Positions 1 to 15,678 of a stretch of DNA of 15,678 nucleotides are shown here, one piece after another. Position 1 is the first letter of the stretch, and the number at the start of each line of letters is the position of its first letter. Under the pieces are notes generated by a model, which saw only the letters and a list, made by a program, of their open reading frames with translations, did not search any database and was not told where the DNA came from. This DNA comes from an uncultured archaeon (GTDB lineage Archaea; Asgardarchaeota; Lokiarchaeia; Sigyniarchaeales; Promethearchaeaceae). The DNA lies in assembly GCA_964426185.1 (NCBI GenBank), contig CAYRPF010000074.1, forward strand, positions 1 through 15,678. Reading direction: 5' to 3'. The translations under genes were made by a program, and so were the position numbers.

Positions 1-1
1 A

Positions 2-31
2 GAAGCATTCTTCATTCGCAAAACGCTCTAA
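2..31 (+). CDS. Possible 3' end of a gene entering from the left edge (…EAFFIRKTL*)
   Basis: Short open frame ending in TAA at 29-31, followed by a T-rich tract. Too short to identify. Confidence 0.25.
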   Translation, partial: EAFFIRKTL

Positions 32-169
32 TTTCAGTTATTTTTTTGAAATATTTGCAATACTACTAAGCACTAAATTGTCGACAATTGTTTGATATTA
101 CAATGTAATAGTTGAATGGGTTTAATTATGGAAAGCAATCATGCCTACATTTCAGTAAAATGGTATTTT

Positions 170-190
170 GGAAGAAAAAAGGAAAAAATT
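170..190 (-). terminator. Archaeal oligo-T terminator of the 760-aa gene
   Basis: Minus strand reads AATTTTTTCCTTTTTTCTTCC just after the stop at 199. Confidence 0.55.
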
Positions 191-198
191 GAATAATT

Positions 199-2481
199 TT
201 AAAGAGATAGTTGCGCTTCACTCGCTTTATAATCGTCCCCGGTTCCGGTGATTTTATAGGTAATTTCTATTGTATCTCCGGCGGGAATCTCTTCAATCAT
301 CCAGATCAGTATATCTTTGCCTTCAAGACTTTTGATTTCACTGGGTTCTTCGCTGTAATCGCCGTATTCGAAGTTATCAGGGACCAGGTCACGTAATTCC
401 ACGTTTGATAAGGTCGTTTCACCAGTATTTGACAACCGTAATACAATTTCATATTCTCCTTCATTGGTAGAAGCCGCAACACGCTTGCCTTTGCGAATCT
501 TTTTACGTTCGTGTACGACCGGTATGGTAATACTTTCAGGTATAATCTCAATTGGTGCACCTGCGGGGTATGTATTTCCTAAATACTTAACATCAGATAC
601 ATATTCCGTATTTTTAGCGGGCTTATCCGCAGTGATGCTATATTTGATTTTAAAGATCATACCAGAAATGAACATTCCAATTGCGCTATCTCGTAATTCG
701 GTCAGTGAAATTTTGAGAAGATGTTCGGAATCTGATGAGTTATCTGATGGTTCCATTTTAATGAAAGACTCATCTACAGTAATAGGTTCACCTAGTTCTT
801 TCCAATCAATTTCTTCGTCTTCATCAAATCCTTCGTGGTTGTAATCGCTGGGCGGGCGTTCAATATAAATTTCGATTTCATCTGCTTTCGGAGGAATATA
901 TCCAGCAGGAATGCGATCTTCAACAATTAATTCATTTAGATCAGCACCCCCTGTATTTTTCACTTGATGTAAAACATCGAACGAACTTCGTGTGAAAGAT
1001 GGAAGAGAAGTCTTGGAATAACGCAACAAACCCGCCATCATGGCAACAGCCAATTCAATATCATCAATTGTGATGGAACCCATAGTAGAAACTTTTCGAT
1101 CTCCAATCAAAAAGAATTCCACTGTTTTATAGAATTTGGGTTCTTCTCCATTTTCGGTAGAAGTTTCCCATACTACTGATTCCCAACGGGCACCTGAAGC
1201 AATAGGAGGAATCTCATTTGGATCAATATCCAAGACTTTTTCTTCAGTAACTGCATTCACAATATCTAAATTCACCAATTGCATTTGAAAATCGGATTCA
1301 TTTTCGAATATGACGCGACAATCATAGGTATCTGGATCCTCTTCTTTTTGGAAAATTTCCATACCCACAAAATTATCACTATAAGCATCGAATTTGTCGA
1401 TTTGAGTTCCAGTTAATGCCTTATTGGCAAAGTACTTCACAAAAACTTTCCCAGTGTTTACTTTTTCTTCAGCAGAATTAACCTCTATAGACATGTTAAC
1501 TTTAAGAGTGACTTCAGCACCTGCATCAACAGATTCGATGGTCCATACGATTAAATTTTCTATATCAATTTCTGCTCGTCCGAGATCAGTACTAACTACG
1601 TCAACATTAGTGAAACCATCGGGAATTTCTTTTTTAATTTCAATATTGACTAATTCATGATCAGTGGTATTTTTTGCCACAATTTTGAATAAAATGCGAT
1701 TTTCATTTCCAGGAACCAGTGAATATGTTTTAACTGATTCATCATTCAAGGTCGAAATAAATTCCGTGATTTTCAAGGAAGGTTCTTCGAATGCATCAAT
1801 TTCGTATTCGATTTCTCGTTCGGTGTCTGGATCTAAGTTTCTGATGGAAATTTGATCATCCAGTGAAGCGGATTTATCCTTTTTGAAGGAAATATCGATA
1901 TCCCAAATTTTATTGGTGTTAGAAGGATTTCTGATTTTAAAAACACCACTGGTTTTCCTATCTTTCTCGATATCTGTTTCTCTGTTAAATTCAAAGTGGG
2001 TTTCTACCTTTTCAATTATTTCTAAAGGAACCAATTCTCCCTCTGCACCTTTGGGACCTAATATTATTTCTCCTTCTCTTTTTCCGGTCGTACTATCAGA
2101 AGTATATATCTTCCCTGTACTTGGATCTTTTTGATATTCTATCGTTCGTTGTCCACCTTGAGATTTCACCTTTTGAGCTTCAGCTTGCTCATATTGCTCA
2201 TTAGAATCAAATCCCATTCGAGTTTTCTCCGCTATTTGAGGGGCACTTGATTCAACTTCATCAAAGAACGTTTTTAAGATATTATAATCTTTTTTACCGA
2301 TTTTAACATCTTTGCCATTCTTTTTAATTGCACTTTCAATCGTGCTTTTTGGTAAATTACTCGGAGAGAGGTTTCCAAAAATCGCAAAAAACTGATCCGA
2401 GGTAACAGAAAAGTCACAAGAAAGAGTTTTTTTATCTAAAACAACCTTCCCCACATTTTTGATGTTGTATTTTTCAACCAT
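199..2481 (-). CDS. 760-aa cytosolic multi-beta-sandwich protein: candidate adaptin mu/delta-COP mu-homology domain (aa ~150-473, with an insert) plus two C-terminal DUF11-like Ig domains
   Basis: Long ORF with no signal peptide or TM helix. It has repeated N-T-(G/T)-x3-L-x4-6-D/E-x-(I/V)-P patterns (aa ~270, ~509, ~685), a W-x-I strand in the first and third repeats, and mu-like motifs in mu order (see findings). The CDS is secure; the product call is inference. Confidence 0.85.
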   Translation of the reverse strand: MVEKYNIKNVGKVVLDKKTLSCDFSVTSDQFFAIFGNLSPSNLPKSTIESAIKKNGKDVKIGKKDYNILKTFFDEVESSAPQIAEKTRMGFDSNEQYEQAEAQKVKSQGGQRTIEYQKDPSTGKIYTSDSTTGKREGEIILGPKGAEGELVPLEIIEKVETHFEFNRETDIEKDRKTSGVFKIRNPSNTNKIWDIDISFKKDKSASLDDQISIRNLDPDTEREIEYEIDAFEEPSLKITEFISTLNDESVKTYSLVPGNENRILFKIVAKNTTDHELVNIEIKKEIPDGFTNVDVVSTDLGRAEIDIENLIVWTIESVDAGAEVTLKVNMSIEVNSAEEKVNTGKVFVKYFANKALTGTQIDKFDAYSDNFVGMEIFQKEEDPDTYDCRVIFENESDFQMQLVNLDIVNAVTEEKVLDIDPNEIPPIASGARWESVVWETSTENGEEPKFYKTVEFFLIGDRKVSTMGSITIDDIELAVAMMAGLLRYSKTSLPSFTRSSFDVLHQVKNTGGADLNELIVEDRIPAGYIPPKADEIEIYIERPPSDYNHEGFDEDEEIDWKELGEPITVDESFIKMEPSDNSSDSEHLLKISLTELRDSAIGMFISGMIFKIKYSITADKPAKNTEYVSDVKYLGNTYPAGAPIEIIPESITIPVVHERKKIRKGKRVAASTNEGEYEIVLRLSNTGETTLSNVELRDLVPDNFEYGDYSEEPSEIKSLEGKDILIWMIEEIPAGDTIEITYKITGTGDDYKASEAQLSL

Positions 2482-2627
2482 ATTTATTCAACCGCATATA
2501 TCTTGTAGTAACTTAATTATGATTTATGTCGAAGTATTTAATAAGAATTTCCTTAACATTTCTATGTTTGATTTATGTCACAGCATTATAAATTCTAAGT
2601 TTTAGTGTATTTATTCAACAATTTAAT

Positions 2628-2667
2628 AAATTATATGTCGTTTTGGAAATTATATGTCGTTTTGGAA
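2628..2667 (+). repeat. Perfect 19-bp tandem duplication (AAATTATATGTCGTTTTGG x2, plus AA) spanning the LysE-family start codon
   Basis: Identical units at 2628-2646 and 2647-2665. Confidence 0.95.
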
Positions 2668-3352
2668 CCTTTTTCTAATCACATTTCTGTTGGGATTAGG
2701 AGGAGCAATTTCACCTGGAGCATTACTAACATATACTATTTATAGATCGATAAAGCAACCTAAACAATCCATAAAAACAGGTTTAAAAATCAGTTTTGGC
2801 CATGTAACAGTTGAGTTAGTGTTGATGATTTTTCTTCTAGCCGGAGTTCTAAATTGGGTGAAAAATCCCAAAGTAATAATTGTTATTGGCTTTGTAGGCG
2901 GAATTTTGTTAATATACTTCGGTACTACGATTCTATATCAAATCGCCCGTAAAAAAGTCGACACACAATTCCTAATTGCTAAAAGGGACAATATTACCCT
3001 TGAAGAAGACGATAAGAAAAAAAAATTTCCATATAATAAGAAATTGAACGCCTATTTTGCATCTATGGGGTTTTTGATGAGTAATCCATATTGGTGGCTG
3101 TGGTGGATCACCATTGGTACTTCTATTATGTTGGATAACGGTGTATTATGGGGGAATTGGAGCGCTTTTATCATTTTTGTAATTGCCAAAGAATTAGGTG
3201 CCATTATTTGGTATACTGGTGTATCAGTTGCGGTGGGTTTAGCTCGTAAAATTATGACGCATGGTATTTATTTGGCAATTCTCGCAATTTGTGGATTATT
3301 TATGTTAGTTTATGGAATATATTTGGGGATTTCCCCTCTTCTGTCCTTATGA
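2654..3352 (+). CDS. LysE-family translocator (amino-acid/metal efflux)
   Basis: N-terminal G-x3-A-x-S-P-G motif (GLGGAISPGALL), GH in TM2, SNPYWWLWW motif, about 6 hydrophobic segments. Confidence 0.85.
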   Translation: MSFWNLFLITFLLGLGGAISPGALLTYTIYRSIKQPKQSIKTGLKISFGHVTVELVLMIFLLAGVLNWVKNPKVIIVIGFVGGILLIYFGTTILYQIARKKVDTQFLIAKRDNITLEEDDKKKKFPYNKKLNAYFASMGFLMSNPYWWLWWITIGTSIMLDNGVLWGNWSAFIIFVIAKELGAIIWYTGVSVAVGLARKIMTHGIYLAILAICGLFMLVYGIYLGISPLLSL

Positions 3353-3449
3353 TCATTGAATTCATTCACACTCAATCAGATTACATAAAAAGAAAAAATT
3401 AAGTTCTTTTTCTGGCAGAAATTAGATTAAATCTATAATTTTTATTTTA

Positions 3450-3845
3450 ATGGAATTTACAAATATTTTGGTCTTATTATTCAACCCATCATTTAAATAT
3501 GCAAACGGGGTGGGAGTTTTTAAGTTATATGAGAAATCTAAAGAAACAGAAATATATGATTTTGTGGAATACTTGGTTAAATGGGTAGCTGGAACGAAAT
3601 TAATCTTTATCGCTTTAATGATCGTAATTTTAGCGTTTGGAAATGAAAAGATGATCTCCTTTATGGCTTTGGCCATGGCAATTTCAATTTTATCCTTCTA
3701 CTGGAAATTATATCTTCTAATAAGAAAAATAGTTCAAAATGAACAGATAGAAACGAAAAATTACTCAAAAACGTTAGCAATAATGATTGGAGCCATGATT
3801 ATAGCATTTTTGATTGGTTTTATTTTATATTTTATCCCAAAATGA
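3450..3845 (+). CDS. Hypothetical small membrane protein (3-4 TM)
   Basis: 131-aa ORF with several hydrophobic segments. No family recognised. The N-terminus may be truncated. Confidence 0.7.
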   Translation: MEFTNILVLLFNPSFKYANGVGVFKLYEKSKETEIYDFVEYLVKWVAGTKLIFIALMIVILAFGNEKMISFMALAMAISILSFYWKLYLLIRKIVQNEQIETKNYSKTLAIMIGAMIIAFLIGFILYFIPK

Positions 3846-3919
3846 ATAAAGCAAAAAAATTTAGTTTCATATTGAAAAATACAGCAAAAATTTTTTTATA
3901 GATTTGATACTTACATTCT

Positions 3920-4909
3920 ATGATAAAAATGAGCAGCAATGCTGTTATATGCGTTAACCATCTCACCAAAAAATTTGGGGATTTCACAGCAGTAAATGAT
4001 ATTTCTTTTGAAGTGGCACATGGTGAGATATTGGGAATGCTTGGACCTAATGGAGCAGGAAAAACAACCACAATTAGAATGATCACAGGCGTTTTCAAAG
4101 TAAATCAACCAAATTGTATTAAAGTTGAAGGTACAGATATCTTGGATTCCCCTGAATATAAGGCAAATTTTGGAATTGTTCCAGAAGTCAGTAATGCTTT
4201 TTTAGATTTTACCGTATGGCAGAATCTCAAATTCTCAGGATCTCTTTATGGTTTGAAAAAATCGGAGATTGAAAAACGTGGAAATTATTTACTTGGACTC
4301 TATGATCTGAAAGATAAAAAAAATTCAATAACAAAATCTCTCTCAAAAGGATTAAAACAACGCTTAAATTTCTGTATGGCACTTATTCACAATCCAAATA
4401 TTCTCATTTTTGATGAACCAACAACCGGTTTAGATCCAATTTCAGTTAAGATCTTAAGAGAACAAATTTTAAAACTTCAACAACAAGGCAAAACAATTTT
4501 TATAACAACCCATGATTTACGTGAAGCCGAAAAAGTCTGTGATAGAATTTTGGTACTTTACAAAGGTAATCTGATTGCTGATGAAACTCCTGAAAAATTA
4601 AGGCAAAAATTTAAATCAGAAACAATAATTTCCTTAGATTTTTACTCAAAACCAGATAAATGGGAATTAATTCTTGATGAATTGCGAAAAAAGTTCAAAA
4701 TTTTGCAAAAAAAATATCGGATTCAAATCATGAGTAATAATATTCTGGAAGATATGGCTCAATTAAATGAGATAATCCAAAATTATAAAATCATTCCCGA
4801 AAATATCAAAGTAATTGAACCTACTTTGGAGGATGCATTTATTGATCTGATTCAAAACCATCAAAGTGCCGAAATTACTAATTTGAAAAAAGAAATGAAG
4901 AATGTGTAA
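3920..4909 (+). CDS. ABC-2 type (DrrA/CcmA-like) exporter ATP-binding subunit
   Basis: Walker A GPNGAGKT, signature LSKGLKQR, Walker B IFDEPT, H-loop THD, C-terminal PTLEDAF motif. The start may be the ATG at 3929. Confidence 0.95.
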   Translation: MIKMSSNAVICVNHLTKKFGDFTAVNDISFEVAHGEILGMLGPNGAGKTTTIRMITGVFKVNQPNCIKVEGTDILDSPEYKANFGIVPEVSNAFLDFTVWQNLKFSGSLYGLKKSEIEKRGNYLLGLYDLKDKKNSITKSLSKGLKQRLNFCMALIHNPNILIFDEPTTGLDPISVKILREQILKLQQQGKTIFITTHDLREAEKVCDRILVLYKGNLIADETPEKLRQKFKSETIISLDFYSKPDKWELILDELRKKFKILQKKYRIQIMSNNILEDMAQLNEIIQNYKIIPENIKVIEPTLEDAFIDLIQNHQSAEITNLKKEMKNV

Positions 4910-4912
4910 AAA

Positions 4913-5719
4913 ATGACCAATAATAATAATAATAGAGATTTGAGAATACGAATTCGCCGCATCTTGGCACTAGTACGGAAAAATATTGCTCTTTACTTTA
5001 AAAAAGGGCCAGTAATTGTGTTTGGTTTACTGTTCCCGTTTTTCATTACACTTTCATGGATAATTGGAAGAAATCTATCAATACAGCAAGTATTTGTTGG
5101 AATTGTGGCTATGTCAACTTTTTTCAGTGCCACCGCTATCTCGCCTGTTGTAATTCCCATTGAAACTCGAGAAAAATCATTAGAACGTGAATTATCTTCC
5201 CCATTACATATCTCAGATATAATTTTAGGCATAATAATCGGTTCGAGCATTTACGCATTTTTCATGTCAATTTTAGTATTTATAGTATTTTTACCATTTC
5301 TTCCAGCAGGAACACTGACGTTTCTTGAAATTTGCGTAATTATTGCGGGAATACTTATGATATGCATATTAGGTTCTGTTATTGGTACGCTAGTATCCGC
5401 TTACCCAACAGATATGACTTCTAATGTAATGGTGATTATGAACTTAATCAAATTTCCATTACTTTTCATAAGTGGAATATTCTTTCCGATATCAAATATA
5501 AGCCCGATAAGCCGAATATTTGTCCATATTTCCCCCATAACGTACATAGTTGATATTTTATGGTATGCCACATCAGATCTTAATATATTTCCGATATGGA
5601 TGGATTTATGTTTGCTTTTAGTCTGGATTGTGGTTTTATATTTCATATCTCAAAAAATCCATGAAAAAACCATTCAAAAACGCATCTCTTTAGGAGGAAA
5701 ACGTCCTCATCGTAATTAA
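4913..5719 (+). CDS. ABC-2 type exporter permease
   Basis: About 6 TM segments, ETREKSLER loop, FISGIFFP and SPITY motifs. Lies 3 nt downstream of the ATPase gene. Confidence 0.92.
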   Translation: MTNNNNNRDLRIRIRRILALVRKNIALYFKKGPVIVFGLLFPFFITLSWIIGRNLSIQQVFVGIVAMSTFFSATAISPVVIPIETREKSLERELSSPLHISDIILGIIIGSSIYAFFMSILVFIVFLPFLPAGTLTFLEICVIIAGILMICILGSVIGTLVSAYPTDMTSNVMVIMNLIKFPLLFISGIFFPISNISPISRIFVHISPITYIVDILWYATSDLNIFPIWMDLCLLLVWIVVLYFISQKIHEKTIQKRISLGGKRPHRN

Positions 5720-5722
5720 ATT

Positions 5723-5751
5723 AAAGAAAAAAACATAAAAATCAAAAAAAA
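5723..5751 (-). terminator. Oligo-T terminator of pckG
   Basis: A-runs on + (T-runs on -) immediately downstream of the stop at 5760. Confidence 0.5.
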
Positions 5752-5759
5752 CACAGAAA

Positions 5760-7628
5760 TTATAATTCTGAAGGGGGAATAATATTTTTTCCTTTCTTTT
5801 CTTTCAGTAGAGTTAATTCAGAGCGAATTCTCTTTAATTCATTCCAAAATTCTTCTGGCATCTCAGGTTCATCTTTATATAATTTTTCCATCCGGTCGTA
5901 TTTGGCTAAATAGCGATCAATCCTTAATGAAAATTGAGCATTATATTCTTCCTCCGTGTAGATTCGTCCTTCAAAAACTGCGCTAAATAATTTTCGCAAA
6001 TCTTCATACTTAGGAATTACACCAATAGGAGTTTTAATTCCATCAAAATCTCCATGAACCCGACCTTCTGCCCAGAGTAGCCATACTTTTTTATCCAATT
6101 TAGTATTTAAATATTTTCCATCTTCTCCCTTTAAGAAGTAATTTGTAGAGAATACTTTCGGGCATTTCTTCAATTTTCGGCCGAATATAAGATGATTTTG
6201 GAAATATTTGCCTAATGGAACGATGATGAAGTCCATATTTGCCATTGGACTGGATTTTCGCACGCCTTCTTGTCCCAATGTAGCAGATGTGGTTTCGGAT
6301 TCAATAGTGGCTCCGATAAAAACTCCATGTTCCCAATTCAAACTTTCTGCAACAGGAACGGTAGTATCAGAATCTCTTCCTCCATAAAGAATACCAGATA
6401 CTGGAGCACCTTCAGGATCATGTAATTTCTCATCTACATTTTCTAGTTCATCAATACGTACGGTAAAGCGAGCATTAGGATGTGAAATAGGAACTTCTTT
6501 TCCTTTGGAATCTTTTATACCTTTTTCCCATTTACCATAATGATTCCAACCTTGAGTAGGATATTCTACATCTCCCATACCTTGCCAAAATACTTCTCCC
6601 TCATCGGTTGTTAATACATTTGAGAATATAACTTCTTTTGGAGTCGTAATTGCCCGATAGATGACGGGATCATCTTTTGGATTAACATCTTTGATAATTC
6701 CGAATATCCCTTGTTCAATATTCACCGCACGCATATCCCCATCTTTTCCTTCCCGGATATATACGATGTCATCACCAACTATTGTAGCTCCGGGAATCAT
6801 TGCCGTACTTGTTTTTCCGCAGGCAGAAGGATATGCTCCAGCAAAATAAGTTTTGCGACTACGATCCAAGGGGTAGAACGCTGAAAGAAACATGTGCTCA
6901 GTTAACCAATCTGAATGATTTGCCTTATAAATAGCCAAGCGTAGTGCTAATTTTTTACATGCAAGACTATTCCCTGCATATTGATTATTTACTGAAAAGA
7001 CCCGAAATTCGAGGGGATCAATGTAAATTCTTCGTTGATCGACATTTTTGGTGCAGTTTCTTCCATCCAATTCTCCAGCAGAATGCCAAAAATAGAAGAA
7101 ATCATCTTTATCTTCTAAAGACGTGCGGAAATGCTCATATCCTGGACGATAGAGAATATCCTCAGAATGACCTACATAAAAACTGTCGGTTATTTGCAAA
7201 GCAGCGATTGCAAAACGTGAATGAGTAGGGCCCAAGCAGAAAAAACGAACGGCCATTGTTTTATTCCGCATTGCTCCATCCATGAATGAAAATATTTCTT
7301 TTAATCCCTTTTCGCGTTCTACCACATTTAAACTTCTACTTAATGTTTGACCTTCGGGTAATAAAGTAGCGGTATGTTCTTTATCTCTGGCTTGATCGCG
7401 ATATCCGTCATAATGGATGGTGTGTCCTTCAGTTTTCAAGGGTTGTTCTTCATGGTATTCCAAAGCAAGATTACGAAAACGCTGAATTTCTTCGGGTGCA
7501 TCAGTGAAAACCATAACTTTAGCAGGTTTCATCAATTCTATCGCATCGAAAACAACTTTATTTACTTTAGGATTAGAAAGTGCTTCCAGTTTTGCTTGAT
7601 CTCCCGGGCTAATCTGATATTCATGCAT
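5760..7628 (-). CDS. pckG: Phosphoenolpyruvate carboxykinase (GTP)
   Basis: 622 aa. YAGNSLACKK, WLTEHM, P-loop AYPSACGKTSTAM, VGDDI, HPNARF and ILYGGR motifs typical of GTP-PEPCK. Confidence 0.97.
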   Translation of the reverse strand: MHEYQISPGDQAKLEALSNPKVNKVVFDAIELMKPAKVMVFTDAPEEIQRFRNLALEYHEEQPLKTEGHTIHYDGYRDQARDKEHTATLLPEGQTLSRSLNVVEREKGLKEIFSFMDGAMRNKTMAVRFFCLGPTHSRFAIAALQITDSFYVGHSEDILYRPGYEHFRTSLEDKDDFFYFWHSAGELDGRNCTKNVDQRRIYIDPLEFRVFSVNNQYAGNSLACKKLALRLAIYKANHSDWLTEHMFLSAFYPLDRSRKTYFAGAYPSACGKTSTAMIPGATIVGDDIVYIREGKDGDMRAVNIEQGIFGIIKDVNPKDDPVIYRAITTPKEVIFSNVLTTDEGEVFWQGMGDVEYPTQGWNHYGKWEKGIKDSKGKEVPISHPNARFTVRIDELENVDEKLHDPEGAPVSGILYGGRDSDTTVPVAESLNWEHGVFIGATIESETTSATLGQEGVRKSSPMANMDFIIVPLGKYFQNHLIFGRKLKKCPKVFSTNYFLKGEDGKYLNTKLDKKVWLLWAEGRVHGDFDGIKTPIGVIPKYEDLRKLFSAVFEGRIYTEEEYNAQFSLRIDRYLAKYDRMEKLYKDEPEMPEEFWNELKRIRSELTLLKEKKGKNIIPPSEL

Positions 7629-7888
7629 AGTTATTCATCCTTCACGCAAGAAATATGAATTAACAATTAGGTGAATGAAGGTTTGCGAACATTAAAAATG
7701 TTTTTCAAAATCACATATTTTATGCAAGTTTTTTCATCCAAAGAGCAATCGCTATTCTAAATTTCACCAAAATCATGGGAATTTCGTGGGCGTGATCAAG
7801 TTTTGGAAAATGTTGTTTAGTTAGAAACACTTTACTATAAAAATTTTTAAATAAGGTATTTTTTAGTAAATTAATAGAATTTCATATT

Positions 7889-7920
7889 TTTTGCATCTTT
7901 GGTGCAAAACAGTATATATT
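7889..7920 (+). promoter_or_regulatory. Palindrome TTTTGCA-N7-TGCAAAA immediately upstream of a TATA-like element (TATATATT) of the GTPase gene
   Basis: Inverted repeat at 7889-7895/7903-7909, TATATATT at 7913-7920, SD-like GGGAG at 7957-7961 before the GTG at 7970. Confidence 0.45.
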
Positions 7921-7969
7921 TCCTTCCATTTGACTAAATGAGATATAAAAATAATAGGGAGCCACTTTT

Positions 7970-9046
7970 GTGTTAGAGAATATCTTTTTAATTTCGTTTA
8001 ATCACATCAATAAAGTCCAGACTGATTCTCTCACTCTTGCCTCTCCTCATTTAAAGTCGCATCACTCAATTTTTGCTTACCCCGATGATTTATTTCTTAA
8101 AACTTCCCCGAATTTGATAGATCAAATTATTTCCCAGCAAAAACATAATTTAGAGGTTTCTTTAGATAGAAAATCATTTACCGAAGATTTTCTATATTCA
8201 AATATCAAAGCCATTAAATCGGAAGACAAAAAATTCTTGGTTTCTCCACTTCCGTATCGCCATGTATTAGGATTAGTCTTTGATCTTGAAACTGATCCAT
8301 TCGATTATCGAAACGAACTAGTTAAACTCTTTCTTGATTATGTCTTAGAAAAATATTTTAACCGCCCCACCAAAAACAATAAAGATACACTTTTATTAAC
8401 TCTTTTTGTGGATCTCAGAAATTACAGCCATGAATCCAATCTTTTCAAAGATAACTTGAATGAACTCCACTTTTATCGGGGAGAACCATACATTAAGGTT
8501 TTTGTTTTCGGTATTGATAACGCAGGAAAAAGTTCTTTAATGAGATTACTGGCCACAGGAAAATTTGATGAAAATTTCTTTATTCCTACCAGAAAGTTCC
8601 GAATCACAAACATTACTTTAATAAATCGAATAAAACTTAGTTGCTGGGATATGCCGGGGCAAATTATATTTCGAGAAGATTGGTTACGAGGTGCTCAAGC
8701 AAGTAATATTTTGCTATTTGTATTAGACGTTGCTGATACCGATCGATATTCTGAAGCAAAAAAAACTTTTTGGAAAATGGTCAATCTCTATGATCTACAA
8801 CATTTGCCCGTGATATTCATAGTTAATAAAATCGATCTATTGGAAAATCCAATCGATAAAACAAAAATAGAGCAAATCTCACATTATTTTGGATTGTCAA
8901 AATTTGTAAGAAGAGACATCATAGTAATTTCCACCAGTTTACCAACTCGAACTGGAATTGATAAATTAAAAAGAGAAATTTCCAAAATTGCAACTCATCT
9001 ACTATTAGTAAACGGTGTTAAGGACCCCCTTTTTATGGCAGAATAA
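7970..9046 (+). CDS. Arf-like small GTPase (aa ~175-358) fused to a ~170-aa N-terminal domain (longin/uDENN-like, inferred)
   Basis: G1 GIDNAGKS, G2 FIPT, G3 WDMPGQ, R-x2-W in switch II, LFVLD, G4 NKID, G5 TSL-x3-TGI. GTG start with a GGGAG SD. Confidence 0.9.
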   Translation: MLENIFLISFNHINKVQTDSLTLASPHLKSHHSIFAYPDDLFLKTSPNLIDQIISQQKHNLEVSLDRKSFTEDFLYSNIKAIKSEDKKFLVSPLPYRHVLGLVFDLETDPFDYRNELVKLFLDYVLEKYFNRPTKNNKDTLLLTLFVDLRNYSHESNLFKDNLNELHFYRGEPYIKVFVFGIDNAGKSSLMRLLATGKFDENFFIPTRKFRITNITLINRIKLSCWDMPGQIIFREDWLRGAQASNILLFVLDVADTDRYSEAKKTFWKMVNLYDLQHLPVIFIVNKIDLLENPIDKTKIEQISHYFGLSKFVRRDIIVISTSLPTRTGIDKLKREISKIATHLLLVNGVKDPLFMAE

Positions 9047-9143
9047 TGTCATTAAAGAGTTTCTTTTTATAAGCCTAATATTTTAATAAATCCTGAAATT
9101 TATTTTCTTAATATATTATGAATAATTATTCATAAATTAATAT

Positions 9144-9168
9144 AGAGGTAAATTACAGAGGTAAATTA
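9144..9168 (+). repeat. 12-bp direct repeat AGAGGTAAATTA x2 (period 13) duplicating an SD-like GAGGT before the ferredoxin ATG
   Basis: Units at 9144-9155 and 9157-9168. Confidence 0.9.
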
Positions 9169-9172
9169 TTAT

Positions 9173-9337
9173 ATGTGGAAAATTGAAAAAAAATTCTGTC
9201 AAGGTTGCGGAATATGCGCCCTTCAATGCAATGGAATACAAATAATTAATGGATATGCAGAAATTGTAGAACAAGATTCATTGTGCATCGAACGAGCCGC
9301 TCGAGTTTGTCCGAGACACTTAATTCAAAGAATTTAA
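9173..9337 (+). CDS. 54-aa single-cluster [4Fe-4S] ferredoxin (not in the ORF track)
   Basis: Translated by hand: MWKIEKKFCQGCGICALQCNGIQIINGYAEIVEQDSLCIERAARVCPRHLIQRI*. It has CxxCxxCxxxC…C-x7-CP, an upstream SD and a downstream T-rich terminator. Confidence 0.88.
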   Translation: MWKIEKKFCQGCGICALQCNGIQIINGYAEIVEQDSLCIERAARVCPRHLIQRI

Positions 9338-9342
9338 AAATA

Positions 9343-9391
9343 TTCTTTTCCTTCTAATTCTTCTTTTTCTCCTCTTTTTAGTTCTTTTTTT
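9343..9391 (+). terminator. Long pyrimidine/oligo-T terminator of the ferredoxin gene
   Basis: TTCTTTTCCTTC…TTTTTCTCCTCTTTTTAGTTCTTTTTTT after the stop at 9337. Confidence 0.55.
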
Positions 9392-9396
9392 ATCAC

Positions 9397-10290
9397 TTAC
9401 GAAATTTGTTCTTCATCGGAATGATTACTTTTTGATTCTTCCGACTCAGAATTTTTCTTCTGTATATCAACATCTTTAAATTCACCCATTTTAGATTCAG
9501 ATGATTTAGGACTTTCTTCGCTTTTTTTGACTACATCCTTCTTTGATTCTTCCTTTTTAGGTGCTGGAGGTGGAGGAGAATGTTTCGATACAATAACCTT
9601 TGCGGGTTGAATAACTTGATCTTTAATCTTATATCCTTTTTGAATGACATTTACTACAGTATCTTCAGGTATATCATCATTAACAACTTTCATCATTACT
9701 TCATGCAAATTAAAATCAAAGGGAACTCCTGTCTTATCAATAGGCTCTACATGAAAGCTTCTGAAGATATTATTCAACATTTCATATAATTTCTTAAATC
9801 CTTGCATGAAATTATCAATTTTGCTTTCCACAGGGATATGTCCATTGGCTTTTTGATTTTGAGCAGTTTCAAAAGCTTTCTCAAATGAATCGATTAAAGG
9901 AGTAAAAGCCGTAATCGTATCTGCTCGGGTTTTTAATCGAATGACATCTTGTTGTTTGATGAAATATTTGCGTGTATTTTCCATTTCTGCTTGTAAATAT
10001 CGATATTTCGACTTTTGATCTTGAATTTGGGTATCTTTTTCTTTAAGTTGTTTCTTTAATTGTTCAATTTGTTCTTTAAGTCGTTCCGTTTCAGATTTTG
10101 GCTTTGGTTTCGATTTTTTTTCTGTGGTAAGATTAGATTTTCTTCCACTTTTTGCTTGTCCGTCTGATTTTTGAGTTTTAGTTTCGTTCTGAGGATTATT
10201 TTCTGGTTCTTTTATTGTTTTTTCATCTAAAGAATGTTTGTTTTCTGAATTTGATTCAGCTTCATTGACTATTTTACTTTCTGAGTTCAT
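9397..10290 (-). CDS. grpE: Nucleotide exchange factor GrpE with long charged N- and C-terminal extensions
   Basis: Coiled coil followed by YLQAEMENTRK, FDFNLHEVM and QKGYKIKDQVIQPAKVIV motifs. I prefer the ATG at 10290 (GGAG 6 nt upstream) over the TTG at 10344 given in the track. Confidence 0.92.
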   Translation of the reverse strand: MNSESKIVNEAESNSENKHSLDEKTIKEPENNPQNETKTQKSDGQAKSGRKSNLTTEKKSKPKPKSETERLKEQIEQLKKQLKEKDTQIQDQKSKYRYLQAEMENTRKYFIKQQDVIRLKTRADTITAFTPLIDSFEKAFETAQNQKANGHIPVESKIDNFMQGFKKLYEMLNNIFRSFHVEPIDKTGVPFDFNLHEVMMKVVNDDIPEDTVVNVIQKGYKIKDQVIQPAKVIVSKHSPPPPAPKKEESKKDVVKKSEESPKSSESKMGEFKDVDIQKKNSESEESKSNHSDEEQIS

Positions 10291-10375
10291 ATCCATCTCC
10301 TGTCTGATATTTTTTAAATTTATGGAATTCGATTTTTCTTTCAAAATATTTCTCTAATATATAACAATGGGGGAT

Positions 10376-10386
10376 AATATTTAAAG
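10376..10386 (-). promoter_or_regulatory. Putative TATA box for grpE (CTTTAAATATT)
   Basis: TTTAAATA core. The identical 11-mer occurs upstream of hsp20 at 11580-11590. Confidence 0.5.
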
Positions 10387-10400
10387 AGCCATCACATCAT

Positions 10401-11006
10401 TTACAATTTACGTATACGAATTCTACGTTTTCTTTGCAATCGCAGAGATTTCTTAAAGGTAATCTCTAAAATATTATCTTCGGCATGGAATTGAGCTCGA
10501 CCAGATTTAGGACTGATAGTTGTATTCAGCTTGATTTTCCGGTAATAATCTCCAGACGTAACTTCTAATATATAGGGGGACGCCTTTAATTGAATTTCTT
10601 CGCCACTTTCTTGTTCAGGAATTTCTAAGATTACTTTAAGATGTAATTCATCTTCGTAGAAATCCAAAAACTGCTTTATCTGCCGCCTTTTAATTTCTTT
10701 TTGTTTTGATACAAAATGTGCCAACGCATTGTGAAATTCATTGAGGGTATCTTCATCATGCTCTTCATCTAATAAGATAGGTTTAGATTTTACTGAATCC
10801 CATCGAAATTGAAAAGATTTTCCATTAAATGGATTGGTAAATTGAAATATTGGATCTTCTCCATCTTCATCACGGACAGGCTCAAAATAATAGTCCCTCA
10901 TCCGTTTCACGATTTCCTCATCACTCAACAGTTTATTGAGTTTTTTGGTGATCCGATACGTCAATTCTTTTTTAGTAGACTTTGTTTCTTCAGGATTAGC
11001 CGTCAT
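10401..11006 (-). CDS. Divergent Hsp20/alpha-crystallin family protein with a long N-terminal region and a basic C-terminal tail
   Basis: C-terminal LDFYEDELHLKVILEIP…YYRKIKL…AQFHAEDNILEITFKK pattern, an IxI motif (IRI), and position next to hsp20 and grpE. Confidence 0.75.
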   Translation of the reverse strand: MTANPEETKSTKKELTYRITKKLNKLLSDEEIVKRMRDYYFEPVRDEDGEDPIFQFTNPFNGKSFQFRWDSVKSKPILLDEEHDEDTLNEFHNALAHFVSKQKEIKRRQIKQFLDFYEDELHLKVILEIPEQESGEEIQLKASPYILEVTSGDYYRKIKLNTTISPKSGRAQFHAEDNILEITFKKSLRLQRKRRIRIRKL

Positions 11007-11112
11007 TTTCTCAGCATTTAGTTACATTAAATTTTTACAAAAAATGGATAAAACAAAGATTTAGCGTGGTGTAGATCACAGATTTGAGGGTTAAAAATTT
11101 TTTTACTACTTT

Positions 11113-11484
11113 TTAATCTACTAACGGAATAATTATATCTAAAATTCCATTATTGAAATGAGCAGTGGCGGAATCAATGTCCACATCTTTCGGCAATTTA
11201 ATACGCTGACTTTTCAAATTTACTTTAATCTCCAATTCATTTGATGAAATTGCAAACAGATCAACAGCTTCTTTCTGAACACATGGTAAACTAACAGCAA
11301 CCTCAATCTGATTGGGTTCTTCAAAGATATCAACAAACCATTCTTCTTGTTCTTCTTCTTGTTCATTCCCTGGATTATCAATTTTAAGGGAATCTGTTTC
11401 TTCGTTAAACATTTCATCGAATGTGTCGAAAATCTGATGCAATAAATCCCAAAAATCAAAAGGGTCGTCATGTCTAGTCGTCAT
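11113..11484 (-). CDS. Small heat shock protein, Hsp20/alpha-crystallin family
   Basis: VDIFEEPNQIEVAVSLPCVQKE…RIKLPKDVD…ATAHFNNGILDIIIP, preceded by a DPFDFW N-terminus and an SD-like GGAAGTGA. Confidence 0.9.
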   Translation of the reverse strand: MTTRHDDPFDFWDLLHQIFDTFDEMFNEETDSLKIDNPGNEQEEEQEEWFVDIFEEPNQIEVAVSLPCVQKEAVDLFAISSNELEIKVNLKSQRIKLPKDVDIDSATAHFNNGILDIIIPLVD

Positions 11485-11528
11485 GCTCTCACTTCCTTAT
11501 TATATACTAATTTGAAATTTTATTCTTG

Positions 11529-11564
11529 CTTCGAAACTTCCTTCGAAACTTTAATAGTTACTAT
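11529..11564. promoter_or_regulatory. Candidate operator of the hsp20 cluster: CTTCGAAACTT x2 (period 12) plus palindrome ATAGT-T-ACTAT
   Basis: Repeats at 11529-11539 and 11541-11551, palindrome at 11554-11564, all just downstream of the minus-strand TATA. Confidence 0.55.
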
Positions 11565-11579
11565 AATTAAGAAAAACAA

Positions 11580-11590
11580 AATATTTAAAG
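11580..11590 (-). promoter_or_regulatory. Putative TATA box for hsp20 (CTTTAAATATT)
   Basis: Archaeal TTTAAATA consensus with an A-rich BRE-like segment upstream on the minus strand. Confidence 0.55.
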
Positions 11591-11760
11591 TTTGTTAACA
11601 TTTTGTTGTCTTTACTAATAAAAATATTAGATTTCGATCATTTTCTTGGAAATATTCCAAAAAAATTCATAATCTTTTTAGCATCGATTGAAACTAATAA
11701 TATTAATAATAATAACAATAACCACAATATCGGATTGTTTTTAGACTGGTGTCGTTCAGA

Positions 11761-12420
11761 ATGCCCTCAAAGAAAAAAATTGATGATTTAGATATTCAAA
11801 TCTTGAAATATTTGCAAAATGATGCAAGAAGAAGCTTGAAAAAACTCGCAGATAAATTGAAGAAAAAAACCAGCACTATTTATCACCGGCTCCAGCGCTT
11901 AAAATCTAATGATGTTATTCTCGGTTACTCCATTATAATGAACCCGGGATACTTGGACATCCATAAAATTGGAATACATACTATCAAGATAAAACCATTA
12001 AATATATCTTCGCTTGATGCGACTTTTCTTTCTAGTTTTGCAAATTTTATCAAAACAGAATTTTCTGAAGTCCTGTTTATTGGGATCTCTGAAGATTCAC
12101 AAGCGATCCATCTTATTTCCTTTCATTCTTCAGATAAGGCATTAAATGAATTTTTGACCAAATTAAAGGAAAATCCCTATATTGCCAACATCGAATCTCA
12201 ATATATAAGCGAGATTGTAAAAGGCCAGAAGCTTTTTTCTTTTAATGAACACTGGATGAAAGCTTCAGTGCGCCACCGAAAAGTGAAAAGGGAATCTAAT
12301 CAAGATGAAAGTCAGGTAATGGAAATAAATCTGGATGATGAATTTCAAGATGATGAAGATATAGAGGAAACCGATGAAGAGCAGAACAATGAAGATTTCG
12401 ATGAAGAGATCCGATTTTAA
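11761..12420 (+). CDS. Lrp/AsnC-family winged-helix transcriptional regulator with an acidic C-terminal tail
   Basis: DDLDIQILKYLQNDARRSLKKLA…TIYHRLQRLKSNDVILGY is the AsnC HTH. A divergent RAM-like domain follows. I prefer the ATG at 11761 over the GTG at 11749. Confidence 0.9.
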   Translation: MPSKKKIDDLDIQILKYLQNDARRSLKKLADKLKKKTSTIYHRLQRLKSNDVILGYSIIMNPGYLDIHKIGIHTIKIKPLNISSLDATFLSSFANFIKTEFSEVLFIGISEDSQAIHLISFHSSDKALNEFLTKLKENPYIANIESQYISEIVKGQKLFSFNEHWMKASVRHRKVKRESNQDESQVMEINLDDEFQDDEDIEETDEEQNNEDFDEEIRF

Positions 12421-12611
12421 AAAAAGAAAAAATAGAAAATATCTTAATGCCGATAGCATATACTGTTGTTATTAGCTTTGAATCGGTATTATATTTCACC
12501 AAGCGGGATATTCCAGTTTAACAAAACCATCATCTACTTTGGATACCGATTTCTCAATATTCAAATAAGTTCATCTATTACATATTTCAATAATAGGATA
12601 TTTACTCAGAA

Positions 12612-13865
12612 ATGACTTTAAAAAAATTTGTCATGGAAAGAAATCAAAACAAACCGGGAAAAATTGAGAAACGAGTCCTTTTCTATAGTTTTCTTATCTT
12701 TTTATCCATCTTTGCTAACACAATTTTGACTTCGAATAAGTCAGAATTTTTTAATGCCCTTTTTGCATCTGTCGCTGATCCTTTAACCGATGATCAAGTT
12801 AAAATAATGGTATCACTATTTGATTCGATCTATTATGCCTCATTTCTGATCGGAATTGTAATCGGGATTGTTTCTGATTCCAGTGGAAAACGGAAAATTT
12901 TGATCATCATCGGATCTGCTGGGTGTTCGGTGCTATTCGTTTGTATGACAATTTCTCCGACCTTTCTGATTTTGGTCATTTTACGTTTCATACAAGGGTC
13001 GTTTCATGTCGGGGTTTGGCAAACCTTAATGGTTCTTATTCTAGATGAATCCGATAGCTCGAACCGTGCAAAACATATGGGCTTGTTTACGATGTTTTTG
13101 GGGATGGCGATGGGATTAGGAACAATGATAAGCGGGTTTATTGCGCAAGTCCATGTATTTTTACCTTATTACATTGCAGGAGGATTCTATCTTATTATTA
13201 TTATCTTATCATTAATTTTTATTCATGATCCTAACCATATCAAAACTCGAATTTCTATTTCTGAAAGTGTACAGCTGTTGAAAAAAGAACCAGGCATAAT
13301 AATTCCATGCATCTTCAATTTTGTTGATAGGTTACACATGGGCTTTTTAGTGACTATTGTACCCCTCTTTCTCACACAAGTTTTCCCATTACGGGAAGGA
13401 TTACGGGGGATGATTTTAGGACTTGGGGCATTACCACAACTGATTGTAGCCTATCCGGTTGGCAAAAAGTGCGATTCTTCATGGGGCTTGAATAAACCAT
13501 TGATTATTGGATCCTTAAGCTATGGACTTATACTTAGTGTCACCGGAGTGTTGGGTAGTCTTAATCTTGGATTATTTATTGCTTTGCTTATATTGGGAGG
13601 TGTGTCTATGGGTTTTACTACACCGCCTACGAATGCTTTACTGGGTGAATTTGTCGATCCTGAACATAATGGAATGGCAACCGCTGTTTTTAATTTATTC
13701 GGGAATTTAGGGATTGTACTGGGACCCTTAGTCGGAGGATTATTGGCTCTGTTTTCTTATCAACTTTCATTTTTCGTTGCAGGTATGATCGAATTAAGCA
13801 CCCTTGTTTTAAATGTTATGCTTATAAAATCACACCCTGCATACACACACCAACCCAAGTTTTAA
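12612..13865 (+). CDS. MFS transporter (MFS_1, DHA1-like)
   Basis: Motif A GIVSDSSGKRK, LRFIQG, about 12 TM segments, GIVLGPLVGG. The start may be the ATG at 12633. Confidence 0.92.
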   Translation: MTLKKFVMERNQNKPGKIEKRVLFYSFLIFLSIFANTILTSNKSEFFNALFASVADPLTDDQVKIMVSLFDSIYYASFLIGIVIGIVSDSSGKRKILIIIGSAGCSVLFVCMTISPTFLILVILRFIQGSFHVGVWQTLMVLILDESDSSNRAKHMGLFTMFLGMAMGLGTMISGFIAQVHVFLPYYIAGGFYLIIIILSLIFIHDPNHIKTRISISESVQLLKKEPGIIIPCIFNFVDRLHMGFLVTIVPLFLTQVFPLREGLRGMILGLGALPQLIVAYPVGKKCDSSWGLNKPLIIGSLSYGLILSVTGVLGSLNLGLFIALLILGGVSMGFTTPPTNALLGEFVDPEHNGMATAVFNLFGNLGIVLGPLVGGLLALFSYQLSFFVAGMIELSTLVLNVMLIKSHPAYTHQPKF

Positions 13866-13967
13866 CTCACTTGGTATTCTGGTCAAGTATCTGGATTGAA
13901 TACATGGTTCATATTATAAATTGCATCAATAACTCCTATGGAGAAATTGAGTTGATAATACTATTTA

Positions 13968-13997
13968 AGAAAGAAGGAAGGAAAGTAAGTAAAAAAA
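13968..13997 (-). terminator. Oligo-T terminator of the GPH-family transporter
   Basis: Pyrimidine/T runs on the minus strand downstream of the stop at 14023. Confidence 0.4.
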
Positions 13998-14022
13998 TTT
14001 GAAGTTATATACATATTTTTGA

Positions 14023-15516
14023 TTACAATAGTTGAGATTCTCGATGACGGCGTTTAATTAACTCCTTTTGCACGTTTCTCCACCTCTCTCCGTGGAGCGG
14101 AAAAATAACTAAAAGAACTATTACAAGCACAATACCTGTGATATTGGCAATACTCATTAATATTCTTAAGCCAAGTTGAAGATTTCCGATATTTTCTCCT
14201 TCTTGCACACCAAGCACATAATCATTCCAGCCATAACCGGAAAGAACTAACATAATAACTAACACAACTAAAATGGTGGAATATCGATTAATCAGCGAAT
14301 TCACACCATAATATGTCCCTTGCCTGCGTTTGCCAGTTTTTACTTCATCTTCATCAATGACTCGACCAATTAGGATATCAACATAATACATTGCTCCTGA
14401 AAGACCGATTCCGACTAATGCCATAGTAATAATGGCAGCATTTTGGCTCGATTCATTGAAAAACCAGAATGGAATAAGTGAAAGGATCCAAATTGTGTTG
14501 CTGATGATAAAACCAATGCGCATATCAAATTTTTTACCCATCCACTCCATTAAAGGAAATGTAGCAGCTGCAACAAGTAGTGCCACTAACAACATCAATG
14601 TAAGAGTGAAATCTCCTTTTTCAATGCCTAGAACCCAAATTCCATAAAGTGAAATTATTGCAGTAAGTAGCTTAAACACAAACCAATTTAACATATTTGC
14701 GGTAATAAAAATCAAAAAGGCCTTATTTTTGACAGTTTCCTTTAATGAAGCCCATATTCCAGGCATTTCTTCGGGTTTTGTTAATTCGGCGGGATCTTCC
14801 TTCATTCCAATCTTGAAAAATAAGAAACCCATGATTAAAGTAATTACGGCAATCAAACCTGCAACCCACATATAATTTAATGGTATATTTTGAACAATTT
14901 CCGCAGGTGTTTCATTATCAGGAGCCATAGGATTGATTAAAAAGGAAGGCAAAGCAAACCCAATTAATATCCCAATAATAGTCATTGTATTTTTTATACG
15001 ATTTGCACGACCGCGCTCGCGTTCGGATCTAAACATTTCTGGAAAAAGAGCAGTTTGATTAGCTGAAAACATTGTATAAAAAAGATCATATAAACAAATG
15101 ATGATTACCATGTAAGCTGTGTTCCATCCATCCGATTCAATAGGAATTGGCCAGAAACGTGGCGGGAAAAAGAGAAGAAAATTCATTAAAGCAAATGGGA
15201 CAAGACTTAGTAGTACCCAAAAACGACGACGACCAAATTTTGATTGTGTTCGGTCTGAGAGCGTGCCGATAATCGGATCATTGATACTGTCCCATATAGC
15301 AAAAAGAATATAGCTCGGCGCCAGCCAATATAGATCGATTCCCACTACTGCATAATAGAAAGTAAACGCGGCAAATTGGAAAAATTGATGGCTCATCTGA
15401 TCTGTGAGCGCCCCAAAGCCGAAACTCATTGTGGTTGATGTAGAATGGGAATATTCATTAAATTTTTTCTCATAAGTACTAAGTGAGGTTTCTGATTTGA
15501 TTTCTTTTGATGACAT
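14023..15516 (-). CDS. MFS transporter, glycoside-pentoside-hexuronide (MelB/MFS_2) cation symporter family
   Basis: WDSINDPIIGTLSDRTQSKFGRRR, ALFPEM-x5-ER and IDEDEVKTGKRRQGTYYG motifs. Confidence 0.93.
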   Translation of the reverse strand: MSSKEIKSETSLSTYEKKFNEYSHSTSTTMSFGFGALTDQMSHQFFQFAAFTFYYAVVGIDLYWLAPSYILFAIWDSINDPIIGTLSDRTQSKFGRRRFWVLLSLVPFALMNFLLFFPPRFWPIPIESDGWNTAYMVIIICLYDLFYTMFSANQTALFPEMFRSERERGRANRIKNTMTIIGILIGFALPSFLINPMAPDNETPAEIVQNIPLNYMWVAGLIAVITLIMGFLFFKIGMKEDPAELTKPEEMPGIWASLKETVKNKAFLIFITANMLNWFVFKLLTAIISLYGIWVLGIEKGDFTLTLMLLVALLVAAATFPLMEWMGKKFDMRIGFIISNTIWILSLIPFWFFNESSQNAAIITMALVGIGLSGAMYYVDILIGRVIDEDEVKTGKRRQGTYYGVNSLINRYSTILVVLVIMLVLSGYGWNDYVLGVQEGENIGNLQLGLRILMSIANITGIVLVIVLLVIFPLHGERWRNVQKELIKRRHRESQLL

Positions 15517-15607
15517 TGCATATTTCCCCGAATTAATAAATTTAAAACATTTATATAATATTTATTTAATTAAATATCTCCTTAAGTGAATTTAAATTTT
15601 CATGATT

Positions 15608-15676
15608 TCATTCCAAATCAGAGACTTCACCCAATATTTCAAGAAGAATAGTTTCAAATTCTTGCCCGGTTATAGG
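15608..15676 (-). CDS. Possible 3' end of a gene entering from the right edge (…PITGQEFETILLEILGEVSDLE*)
   Basis: Open minus-strand frame from the window edge to the TGA at 15610-15608, with an amphipathic-helix-like sequence. Confidence 0.35.
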   Translation of the reverse strand, partial: PITGQEFETILLEILGEVSDLE

Positions 15677-15678
15677 GG

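Follow-up and report, generated by a model that had tools for sequence, protein, structure and literature searches.

The mu-homology domain (MHD) is the cargo- and accessory-binding module of the adaptor protein (AP), COPI and muniscin adaptors, where it is carried by the AP medium (mu) subunits, by delta-COP and by muniscins such as SGIP1 and Syp1. The surface of mu2 is basic and lipid-binding, and its conserved tyrosine pocket is formed by Phe174, Asp176, Lys203, Trp421 and Arg423. In COPI, TSET and the BBSome, propellers serve as coat or cage elements. How the cargo-selecting machinery of eukaryotic vesicle coats originated is an open question, and its parts in Asgard archaea are known as scattered Pfam hits. 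Eme et al. (2023; Nature 618:992, PMC10307638) listed 44 candidates for the Pfam family PF00928 (Adap_comp_sub) from most Asgard phyla (section 4.3.1, Table S3), found the domain never fused to Clat_adaptor_s and of 'sparse distribution', gave no architecture, and argued that Asgard archaea possess building blocks of AP complexes. A literature search found no paper describing the fold, insert or architecture of the Asgard MHD family, and Koestlbacher et al. (2026) give no detail on the MHD. In this paper we describe P0001, a 760-amino-acid (aa) protein encoded by a single open reading frame that runs from position 2481 to 199 on the minus strand of a 15,678-nucleotide stretch of DNA from an uncultured archaeon of the Lokiarchaeia (GenBank assembly GCA_964426185.1, contig CAYRPF010000074.1, positions 1 to 15,678; hereafter the window).

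We consider it somewhat probable that P0001 is a cytosolic modular scaffold with a genuine MHD core, related to the C-terminal domain of AP mu subunits, to delta-COP and to the muniscins, whose C-terminal immunoglobulin (Ig)-like domains dock on a propeller protein and leave the MHD free for a further ligand. The fold and the gene linkage are computed and the binding is predicted; from these we infer that the protein may serve as an adaptor, whether at a membrane or in another setting. The family had been listed before and gains a further member in this gene; what makes the gene valuable is a concrete protein pair that can be tested. Beyond the Pfam hit of Eme et al. (2023), we give the whole fold, a conserved insert, a distribution that is near-universal in the phylum, and a partner that is linked by gene position and predicted to bind.

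An AlphaFold2 model of aa 141-480, made from the family alignment, is all-beta, with a predicted local distance difference test score (pLDDT) of 93.7 and a predicted template modelling score of 0.80; the full-length model has a pLDDT of 82.5. When the model was compared with the PDB using Foldseek, the best 50 matches were all MHDs (top E-value 1.3e-10), and in most of them 241-261 of approximately 250 target columns were aligned. The model shows the all-beta MHD fold of two subdomains, in which subdomain B interrupts the chain of subdomain A and the final strands rejoin A, although this strand-by-strand topology was deduced from aligned ranges, secondary structure and the HMMER alignment and not from coordinates. 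The core at aa 147-474 (1060..2043, minus strand) is confidently predicted to be a complete MHD. The original prediction had placed an MHD at 1063-2037, that is, at aa 148-472, on the strength of an ordered series of motifs. These motifs are where they were said to be: LVPLEIIEKVE at aa 150-160, SGVFKIRN at aa 178-185, a block from NRILFKIVAKN to IVWTIESVDAGAEVTLKVNM at aa 261-330, KVFVKYFANKALTGTQIDKF at aa 345-364 and RKVSTMGSITI at aa 462-472. Its claim of a whole-domain MHD fold holds by the model; at the level of sequence it finds support in subdomain B and not beyond, and it takes the predicted structure to see the matches that it claimed in subdomain A.

The sequence evidence for subdomain B is as follows. 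PF00928 scores 45.4 bits on P0001 against a cut-off of 31.6 (E 8.7e-12), the match being limited to profile positions 120-236 of 259, which correspond to aa 256-367 (1381..1716, minus strand), that is, to subdomain B and two return strands. Thirty-seven of 61 relatives match PF00928 independently at E 0.01 or better, and the likeness of P0001 to this family, judged on its sequence, exceeds chance. Among PDB sequences the profile of the 61 relatives ranked AP-2 mu at the top, marginally (E 0.09) and over mu2 residues 302-402 only. Likewise, hhalign of the family against 12 metazoan mu2 MHDs aligned only subdomain B (probability 13%, E 0.002), with a mu2 template whose mean column identity of 89% makes it too shallow for judging subdomain A. 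A phmmer search of the whole protein against PDB sequences returned chance matches to ZnuA only.

Approximately 100 residues of the model fall outside the Foldseek alignment with mu2, although that alignment spans the eukaryotic domain end to end, so the extra residues are internal to the domain. The secondary structure and the HMMER alignment place them at aa 369-449 (1135..1377, minus strand), between the pair of strands next in the chain after subdomain B and the closing beta-hairpin at aa 450-474 (1060..1134, minus strand), in a position flanked by the equivalents of the mu2 strands that end near residue 413 and start near residue 418. The closing strands are aa 450-458 and 460-472, with F456 invariant and D474 near-invariant, and model residue 334 (aa 474) pairs with the C-terminal residue of mu2, 435. 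An insert before the closing strand had been foreseen from the sequence, and it is indeed found, as a conserved segment of approximately 80 aa. It is the best conserved segment of the MHD (mean major-residue frequency 0.64), with N370, P383, F392, N394, S396, D406, W433 and P448 invariant, and it is kept in distant Asgard classes, in which profile matches extend to position ~340. The insert is likely to be functional rather than decorative.

The MHD gene is paired with a gene for a beta-propeller. The latter has its stop codon at window 29-31, with 167 bp between it and that of the MHD gene, and the two genes are convergent (tail to tail). The last 55 bases of another contig of the assembly (C127) are identical to window 1-55, and this exact overlap makes C127 and the window's contig (C74) adjacent, with the propeller gene ending at window base 31; window 1..31 (plus strand) thus holds the last 31 bases of the gene, stop codon included. 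The assembly break between the two contigs falls within the propeller gene, at its last codons. An absence of the propeller from the window's genome was considered and ruled out, the gene being on the overlapping contig. On C127 it stands next to a TFIIB gene, as in Candidatus Harpocratesius, and in the closest relative the MHD and propeller genes share one 4.4-kb contig in the same arrangement. In Lokiarchaeum ossiferum (CP104013.1) 143 bp separate the two genes. The encoded protein scores 54.7 bits on Beta-prop_BBS7, 52.6 on Itfg2 and 50.1 on BBS2_Mid, each against a cut-off of 27, and so resembles the propellers of BBS7, BBS2 and BBS1 of the BBSome and of ITFG2 of KICSTOR. The BBS proteins also have ear, platform and helical parts, whereas the partner here is a bare propeller of 362 aa; its own relatives carry C-terminal extensions and reach up to 814 aa. 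We know of no eukaryotic complex of an MHD protein with a propeller of the BBS7/ITFG2 type.

Of 11 loci from the window's order, 9 have the propeller gene at 0-1 genes downstream, against none of 15 loci from other families. Its presence goes with a motif in the C-terminal domain of the MHD protein, FEY (aa 704-706; 364..372, minus strand). Among 80 species-representative loci, the downstream sequence reaches 3.5 kb or more in 63; FEY and the propeller occur together in 55 of these, FEY without the propeller in 2, neither in 6 and the propeller without FEY in none, which means that the pair is kept in 55 of the 57 FEY-bearing species loci. FEY occurs only in relatives with a propeller neighbour, bar both copies of Promethearchaeum syntrophicum MK-D1, and in relatives without that neighbour, including a paralog in the window's genome, it is replaced (GFKLVS, KFEMQD, GLILSD). 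The propeller gene is convergent in the window's subfamily; in a second subfamily the two genes are co-directional, with the propeller gene downstream at a distance of mostly 70-170 bp, an operon-like arrangement. A conserved open reading frame of ~150 aa abuts the propeller gene convergently in this second subfamily (L013 13962-14417, L020 12712-13182, L021 5893-6330 and L023 13445-13915); in the window's genome it is TFIIB, and not this frame, that adjoins the propeller gene. Genes for a gelsolin-domain protein and TFIIB also lie near the pair in relatives of the window's subfamily (L011 17226-18251, L015 10946-12013, L014 18115-18283).

The complex of P0001 aa 141-760 with the propeller was modelled in three runs, with both chains given as alignments, together with three controls. 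The interface score ipSAE was 0.01, 0.82 and 0.82 (median 0.82) and the best control gave 0.00; the ipSAE mark is reached by 58 of 80 solved complexes and by 2 of 110 mismatched pairs, a calibration which is approximate for self-made alignments. The partner has a pLDDT of at least 83, and contact agreement among the runs is at least 0%. The contacts on the propeller recur blade by blade (residues 35, 55, 77, 99, 125, 148, 222, 244, 267, 289, 312 and 338) and include the invariant W77, W309 and Y338, which points to the top face of the propeller as the predicted contact face. On the side of P0001 the least expected error belongs to chain residue 565, which contacts the invariant W77 and is P0001 705 if the chain was counted from 1. 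With this numbering the interface would comprise aa 537-601 and 703-748 and so fall in the two C-terminal Ig domains, with its centre at E705 of the 'NFEYG' strand and the hairpin 715-721; if the numbers are instead residues of P0001, it would comprise the MHD insert and an acidic loop. We favour the former, because FEY tracks the propeller neighbour and the insert motif is conserved whatever the neighbour, and FEY is then the probable centre of the predicted interface. The model is predicted evidence for binding of the MHD protein to the propeller, most likely via the C-terminal Ig domains.

From these results the following mechanism may be proposed. The C-terminal Ig domains would dock on the top face of the seven-blade BBS7/ITFG2-type propeller, with contacts made by the DUF11 domain, through its FEY strand and its hairpin at aa 715-721, and by loops of the pilin-like domain before it. 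The MHD and its conserved insert would be left free for a third partner, and P0001 would act as a scaffold or adaptor.

Several observations weigh against the scaffold reading or parts of it. Sequence alone relates P0001 to eukaryotic MHDs for subdomain B only, and that same stretch also matches DUF11 (E 1e-7); beyond it, the MHD assignment rests on a predicted structure, the coordinates of which were not inspected. The MHD is acidic (pI 4.5), unlike the basic lipid-binding surface of mu2, and the longin family Clat_adaptor_s (PF01217) has no match at E 0.01 in the whole genome (92% complete), the control genomes being likewise without a match. The linkage counts cover related species and are to be read as clades, not independent events. 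Both retrieved MK-D1 copies (L044 and L046; NZ_CP042905.2) have FEY and no propeller within ~5 kb downstream. Four other families of the phylum have, instead of the propeller, a metallo-beta-lactamase-fold gene (Lactamase_B_3, ~240 aa) immediately upstream of, and co-directional with, the gene for an MHD protein of ~600 aa (L025 8132-8872, L026 10071-10790, L027 10082-10783, L029 10015-10869; further L033 8087-8803, L036 8108-8812, L037 9992-10747). One complex run of the three scored 0.01 on a calibration that is only rough, and the numbering of the interface is ambiguous, the C-terminal Ig domains being favoured solely for the FEY correlation.

The DUF11 match raises the question of whether the fold reflects descent at all. 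PF01345 (DUF11) scores 57.9 bits on P0001 against a cut-off of 24.6, in two stretches at aa 259-344 and ~675-745, and TIGR01451 scores 37.2 bits against a cut-off of 24; subdomain B and the C-terminal domain thus both match PF01345, as do the DUF11/TIGR01451/CARDB Ig repeats. The family profile also matches giant DUF11-repeat proteins 20-40 times each, via the positions of subdomain B, and the metazoan mu2 MHD has no DUF11 match in Pfam. A cluster in the ESM Atlas, labelled mostly Thermoplasmatota, has the same overall shape (template modelling score by query 0.69), so the arrangement may predate the Asgard archaea. P0001 could be an archaeal multi-Ig scaffold of the DUF11/CARDB type in which one Ig domain happens to sit inside another, so that it imitates an MHD and is uninformative on eukaryotic adaptors, a view to which the match of subdomain B to DUF11 as well as to PF00928 and the low hhalign probability would also lend themselves. 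We regard this as unlikely. The PF00928 match as mere DUF11 cross-talk was ruled out by the whole-domain structural match. DUF11/CARDB surface proteins are secreted tandem arrays; P0001 nests one such domain within another beta-sandwich and lacks a leader. Subdomain B of P0001 can still be recognised as a DUF11-type Ig domain. On its sequence the archaeal subdomain B looks intermediate between such a domain and an MHD, which suggests that the MHD may have arisen when a DUF11-type Ig domain became inserted in a second beta-sandwich, subdomain B being the descendant of that Ig domain.

P0001 is not a mu subunit, because it has no longin domain and is not predicted to have a conserved tyrosine-motif pocket. 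PF01217 is absent from the protein, and long relatives of 900-1340 aa show neither a longin nor another informative fusion. The identity of its MHD to those of AP medium subunits (mu2 of AP-2, PDB 5WRL, 2BP5 and 1BW8; mu1, mu3A and mu4) is 13-17%. Compared with these, it has ~80 extra conserved residues before the closing hairpin and two Ig domains after the MHD, its surface is acidic, there is no N-terminal longin, and position 154 is Lys or Glu in the family. The MHDs of delta-COP (4O8Q, 5FJW) and of the muniscins SGIP1 and Syp1 (5AWR, 3G9H) stand in proteins of different domain order and with different partners, the MHD of P0001 being central. Glu154 had been assigned to the position of the tyrosine-binding Asp of mu2. 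The position stands: the first pairs aligned by Foldseek (model 7 with mu2 169, model 6 with mu3A 174, model 9 with mu4 185) put it (model residue 14), assuming no gaps, at the offset of mu2 176, mu3A 182 and mu4 190. The residue itself is not conserved, however: 33 of the 58 aligned relatives have Lys and 20 have Glu, and a YxxPhi-type pocket is for that reason not predicted in the family; of the mu2 pocket residues, only the position of Asp176 was mapped, from alignment offsets. E157, at the offset of mu2 E179, is invariant among the 58.

These differences bear on the proposal that P0001 is a single-chain proto-coat cargo adaptor at membranes, its MHD serving to choose cargo tails and the propeller serving as a coat or cage element. 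Its fold is that of the binding module of the AP, COPI and muniscin adaptors, its predicted partner shares its propeller type with BBSome subunits and ITFG2, a gene for an Arf-family GTPase stands at a distance of 5.5 kb and holds this place in close relatives, and AP building blocks have been argued for in Asgard archaea (Eme et al. 2023; PMC10307638). Nevertheless, we found no lipid-binding or membrane-targeting feature in this acidic protein, the residue at the tyrosine-pocket position varies, the longin domain is missing, and no link was found to genes resembling the HEAT-repeat large subunits; HEAT-repeat frames of the genome do match Adaptin_N, but the same model also matches three control prokaryotes, and the frames are unlinked to the MHD gene. 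For a small subunit of the sigma type the genome gave no match. Asgard genomes abound in small GTPase genes (PMC10307638), so the Arf-family neighbour may be there by chance, and distant family members are paired with the hydrolase-fold gene. Given the acidic protein, the lack of a predicted tyrosine pocket and of a longin, and the hydrolase-fold pairing, we hold the proto-coat proposal to be a minority possibility and rather unlikely. It is also doubtful, in our estimate, that the Lokiarchaeia MHD protein and the propeller form a stable cytosolic primitive adaptor in which the Ig domains hold the propeller and the MHD with its insert picks a membrane or cargo ligand; if they do, the complex would be a present-day relative of the form that preceded the MHD-bearing coats (AP, COPI, TSET). 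If the pair is unrelated to membranes, it would caution against inferring coat function from an MHD fold. The Asgard hit to the mu C-terminal domain now stands for a complete, confidently modelled MHD, and in the order that includes both cultured Lokiarchaea the MHD gene is tied to a propeller gene, the products of the two being predicted to bind.

The whole gene (199..2481, minus strand) is read, from the open reading frame, its translation, hydropathy and relatives, as encoding a soluble multi-domain MHD protein. P0001 has neither a hydrophobic N-terminus nor a membrane helix by Kyte-Doolittle analysis, in agreement with the earlier description of a soluble protein. Its highest 19-residue mean is 1.34, at aa 468, in a segment modelled as a beta-strand, and the protein is acidic (pI 4.5) with the exception of its first 145 residues, which are basic. 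DUF11, CARDB and pilin-like Ig domains occur mostly in secreted or surface proteins. P0001 has DUF11 and pilin-like Ig domains, and one relative bears the NCBI name 'COG1470 family protein', so that a secreted or cell-surface, adhesin-like protein has to be considered. We think this very improbable: the protein has neither a signal peptide nor a membrane helix nor an anchor at its C-terminus, none of the relatives has a hydrophobic N-terminus, the sole hydrophobic peak is an internal strand at approximately aa 450-470, and the predicted propeller partner has no leader either.

All 65 full-length relatives come from Asgard sources, and all named relatives are Asgard archaea (Promethearchaeota), the nearest being Candidatus Harpocratesius (75-78% identity). 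Much as had been expected of an automatic pipeline, the label given to the protein is COG1470, hypothetical or TIGR01451. In a survey of Asgard archaea only, the family profile found matches in 158 of the 201 genomes sampled from the phylum and in 54 of the 59 genera; they span nearly all of the 341 positions, in frames of 580-780 aa. The family is therefore near-universal across the Asgard lineages sampled, the phyletic check that the original prediction had called for, and is present in most sampled genomes rather than sparse. Copies are found in the cultured Promethearchaeum syntrophicum MK-D1 and Lokiarchaeum ossiferum. The profile also matches a Jordarchaeales protein (P0140, E 3.5e-47) and a Njordarchaeales protein (P0133), and the first candidate of Table S3 (Jordarchaeia) shares the family motifs by eye. 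By its sequence P0001 belongs to the Asgard PF00928 candidate family of Eme et al. (2023; PMC10307638), and since relatives of P0001 are among those candidates, the suggestion that the protein was undescribed does not hold. One full-length member (L059, DATKZI010000014.1) comes from a metagenome-assembled genome labelled 'Candidatus Bathyarchaeia archaeon'. We rejected it as a non-Asgard occurrence; in the genome collection searched, the genome groups with the window's own phylum, and the label of the record is probably wrong. Outside the Asgard archaea, MHD proteins are reported from Marine Group II.

The window's genome has three copies of the family, in the window and on contigs C20 and C103. 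The paralog on C20, P0067, is 735 aa long, 29% identical and of the same architecture, with FEY replaced by FEM. Its gene (locus L018, G000:C20:3000-22000; gene 8993-11200, plus strand) has no propeller neighbour. Two genes downstream of it lies a gene for a 450-aa Gtr1/RagA-type GTPase (L018 12417-13769, minus strand), and a gene for a TPR protein lies upstream. The third copy (G000:C103:3384-4334, plus strand) is in a 689-aa frame that matches the family profile at E 2e-46.

The MHD is flanked by four further segments. The N-terminal domain, aa 1-85 (2227..2481, minus strand), has three strands and then three helices in the full-length AlphaFold2 model and is basic. It is specific to one clade, being present in 21 of 58 aligned relatives and in P0067. 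No Pfam family scored above its cut-off on aa 1-85, and a search of the ESM Atlas by features with aa 1-145 gave no usable match. The segment before the MHD, aa 88-146 (2044..2220, minus strand), is occupied in all 58 aligned relatives and is modelled as a helix (93-105) and a beta-hairpin (125-140); it is near-invariant at E95, E98, K106, I125, T127, D129, G133, E136 and G137. After the MHD comes an Ig-like domain of the pilin/CnaB-like kind at aa 481-656 (514..1041, minus strand), with an acidic loop at ~545-590; its best structural matches are Gram-positive pilin domains, and a Pfam scan of aa 481-660 gave no match. The last domain, aa 657-760 (202..513, minus strand), is the DUF11 Ig domain that carries FEY (PF01345 E 5e-6, TIGR01451 E 2e-9). 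These two Ig domains had been likened to adaptin appendages, for which we find no support: Alpha_adaptinC2 (PF02883) scores 12.4 bits against a cut-off of 27.6 (E 0.19).

The surrounding genes encode LysE, a pair of ABC (ATP-binding cassette) transporter proteins, a GTP-dependent phosphoenolpyruvate carboxykinase, the Arf-family GTPase, GrpE, a PIH1_CS-like protein, an HSP20-like protein and an AsnC-type regulator. The Arf-family GTPase gene (7970-9046, plus strand) encodes 358 aa, with the GTPase domain at aa 174-337 (PF00025, E 1e-24) and an N-terminal extension of ~170 aa that has no Pfam match; Harpocratesius (L011) and L014 keep this gene close to that of the MHD protein. At 10401-11006 (minus strand) is a gene whose 201-aa product has a PIH1 CS-like domain (PF18201, scoring 25.5 bits where the cut-off is 23.3). 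It lies between the GrpE gene and an HSP20/ArsA_HSP20-like gene, the two flanking frames being 9397-10344 and 11113-11484 (both minus strand), which places a eukaryote-type co-chaperone domain inside a chaperone gene cluster, and the same gene order is found in Harpocratesius (L011).

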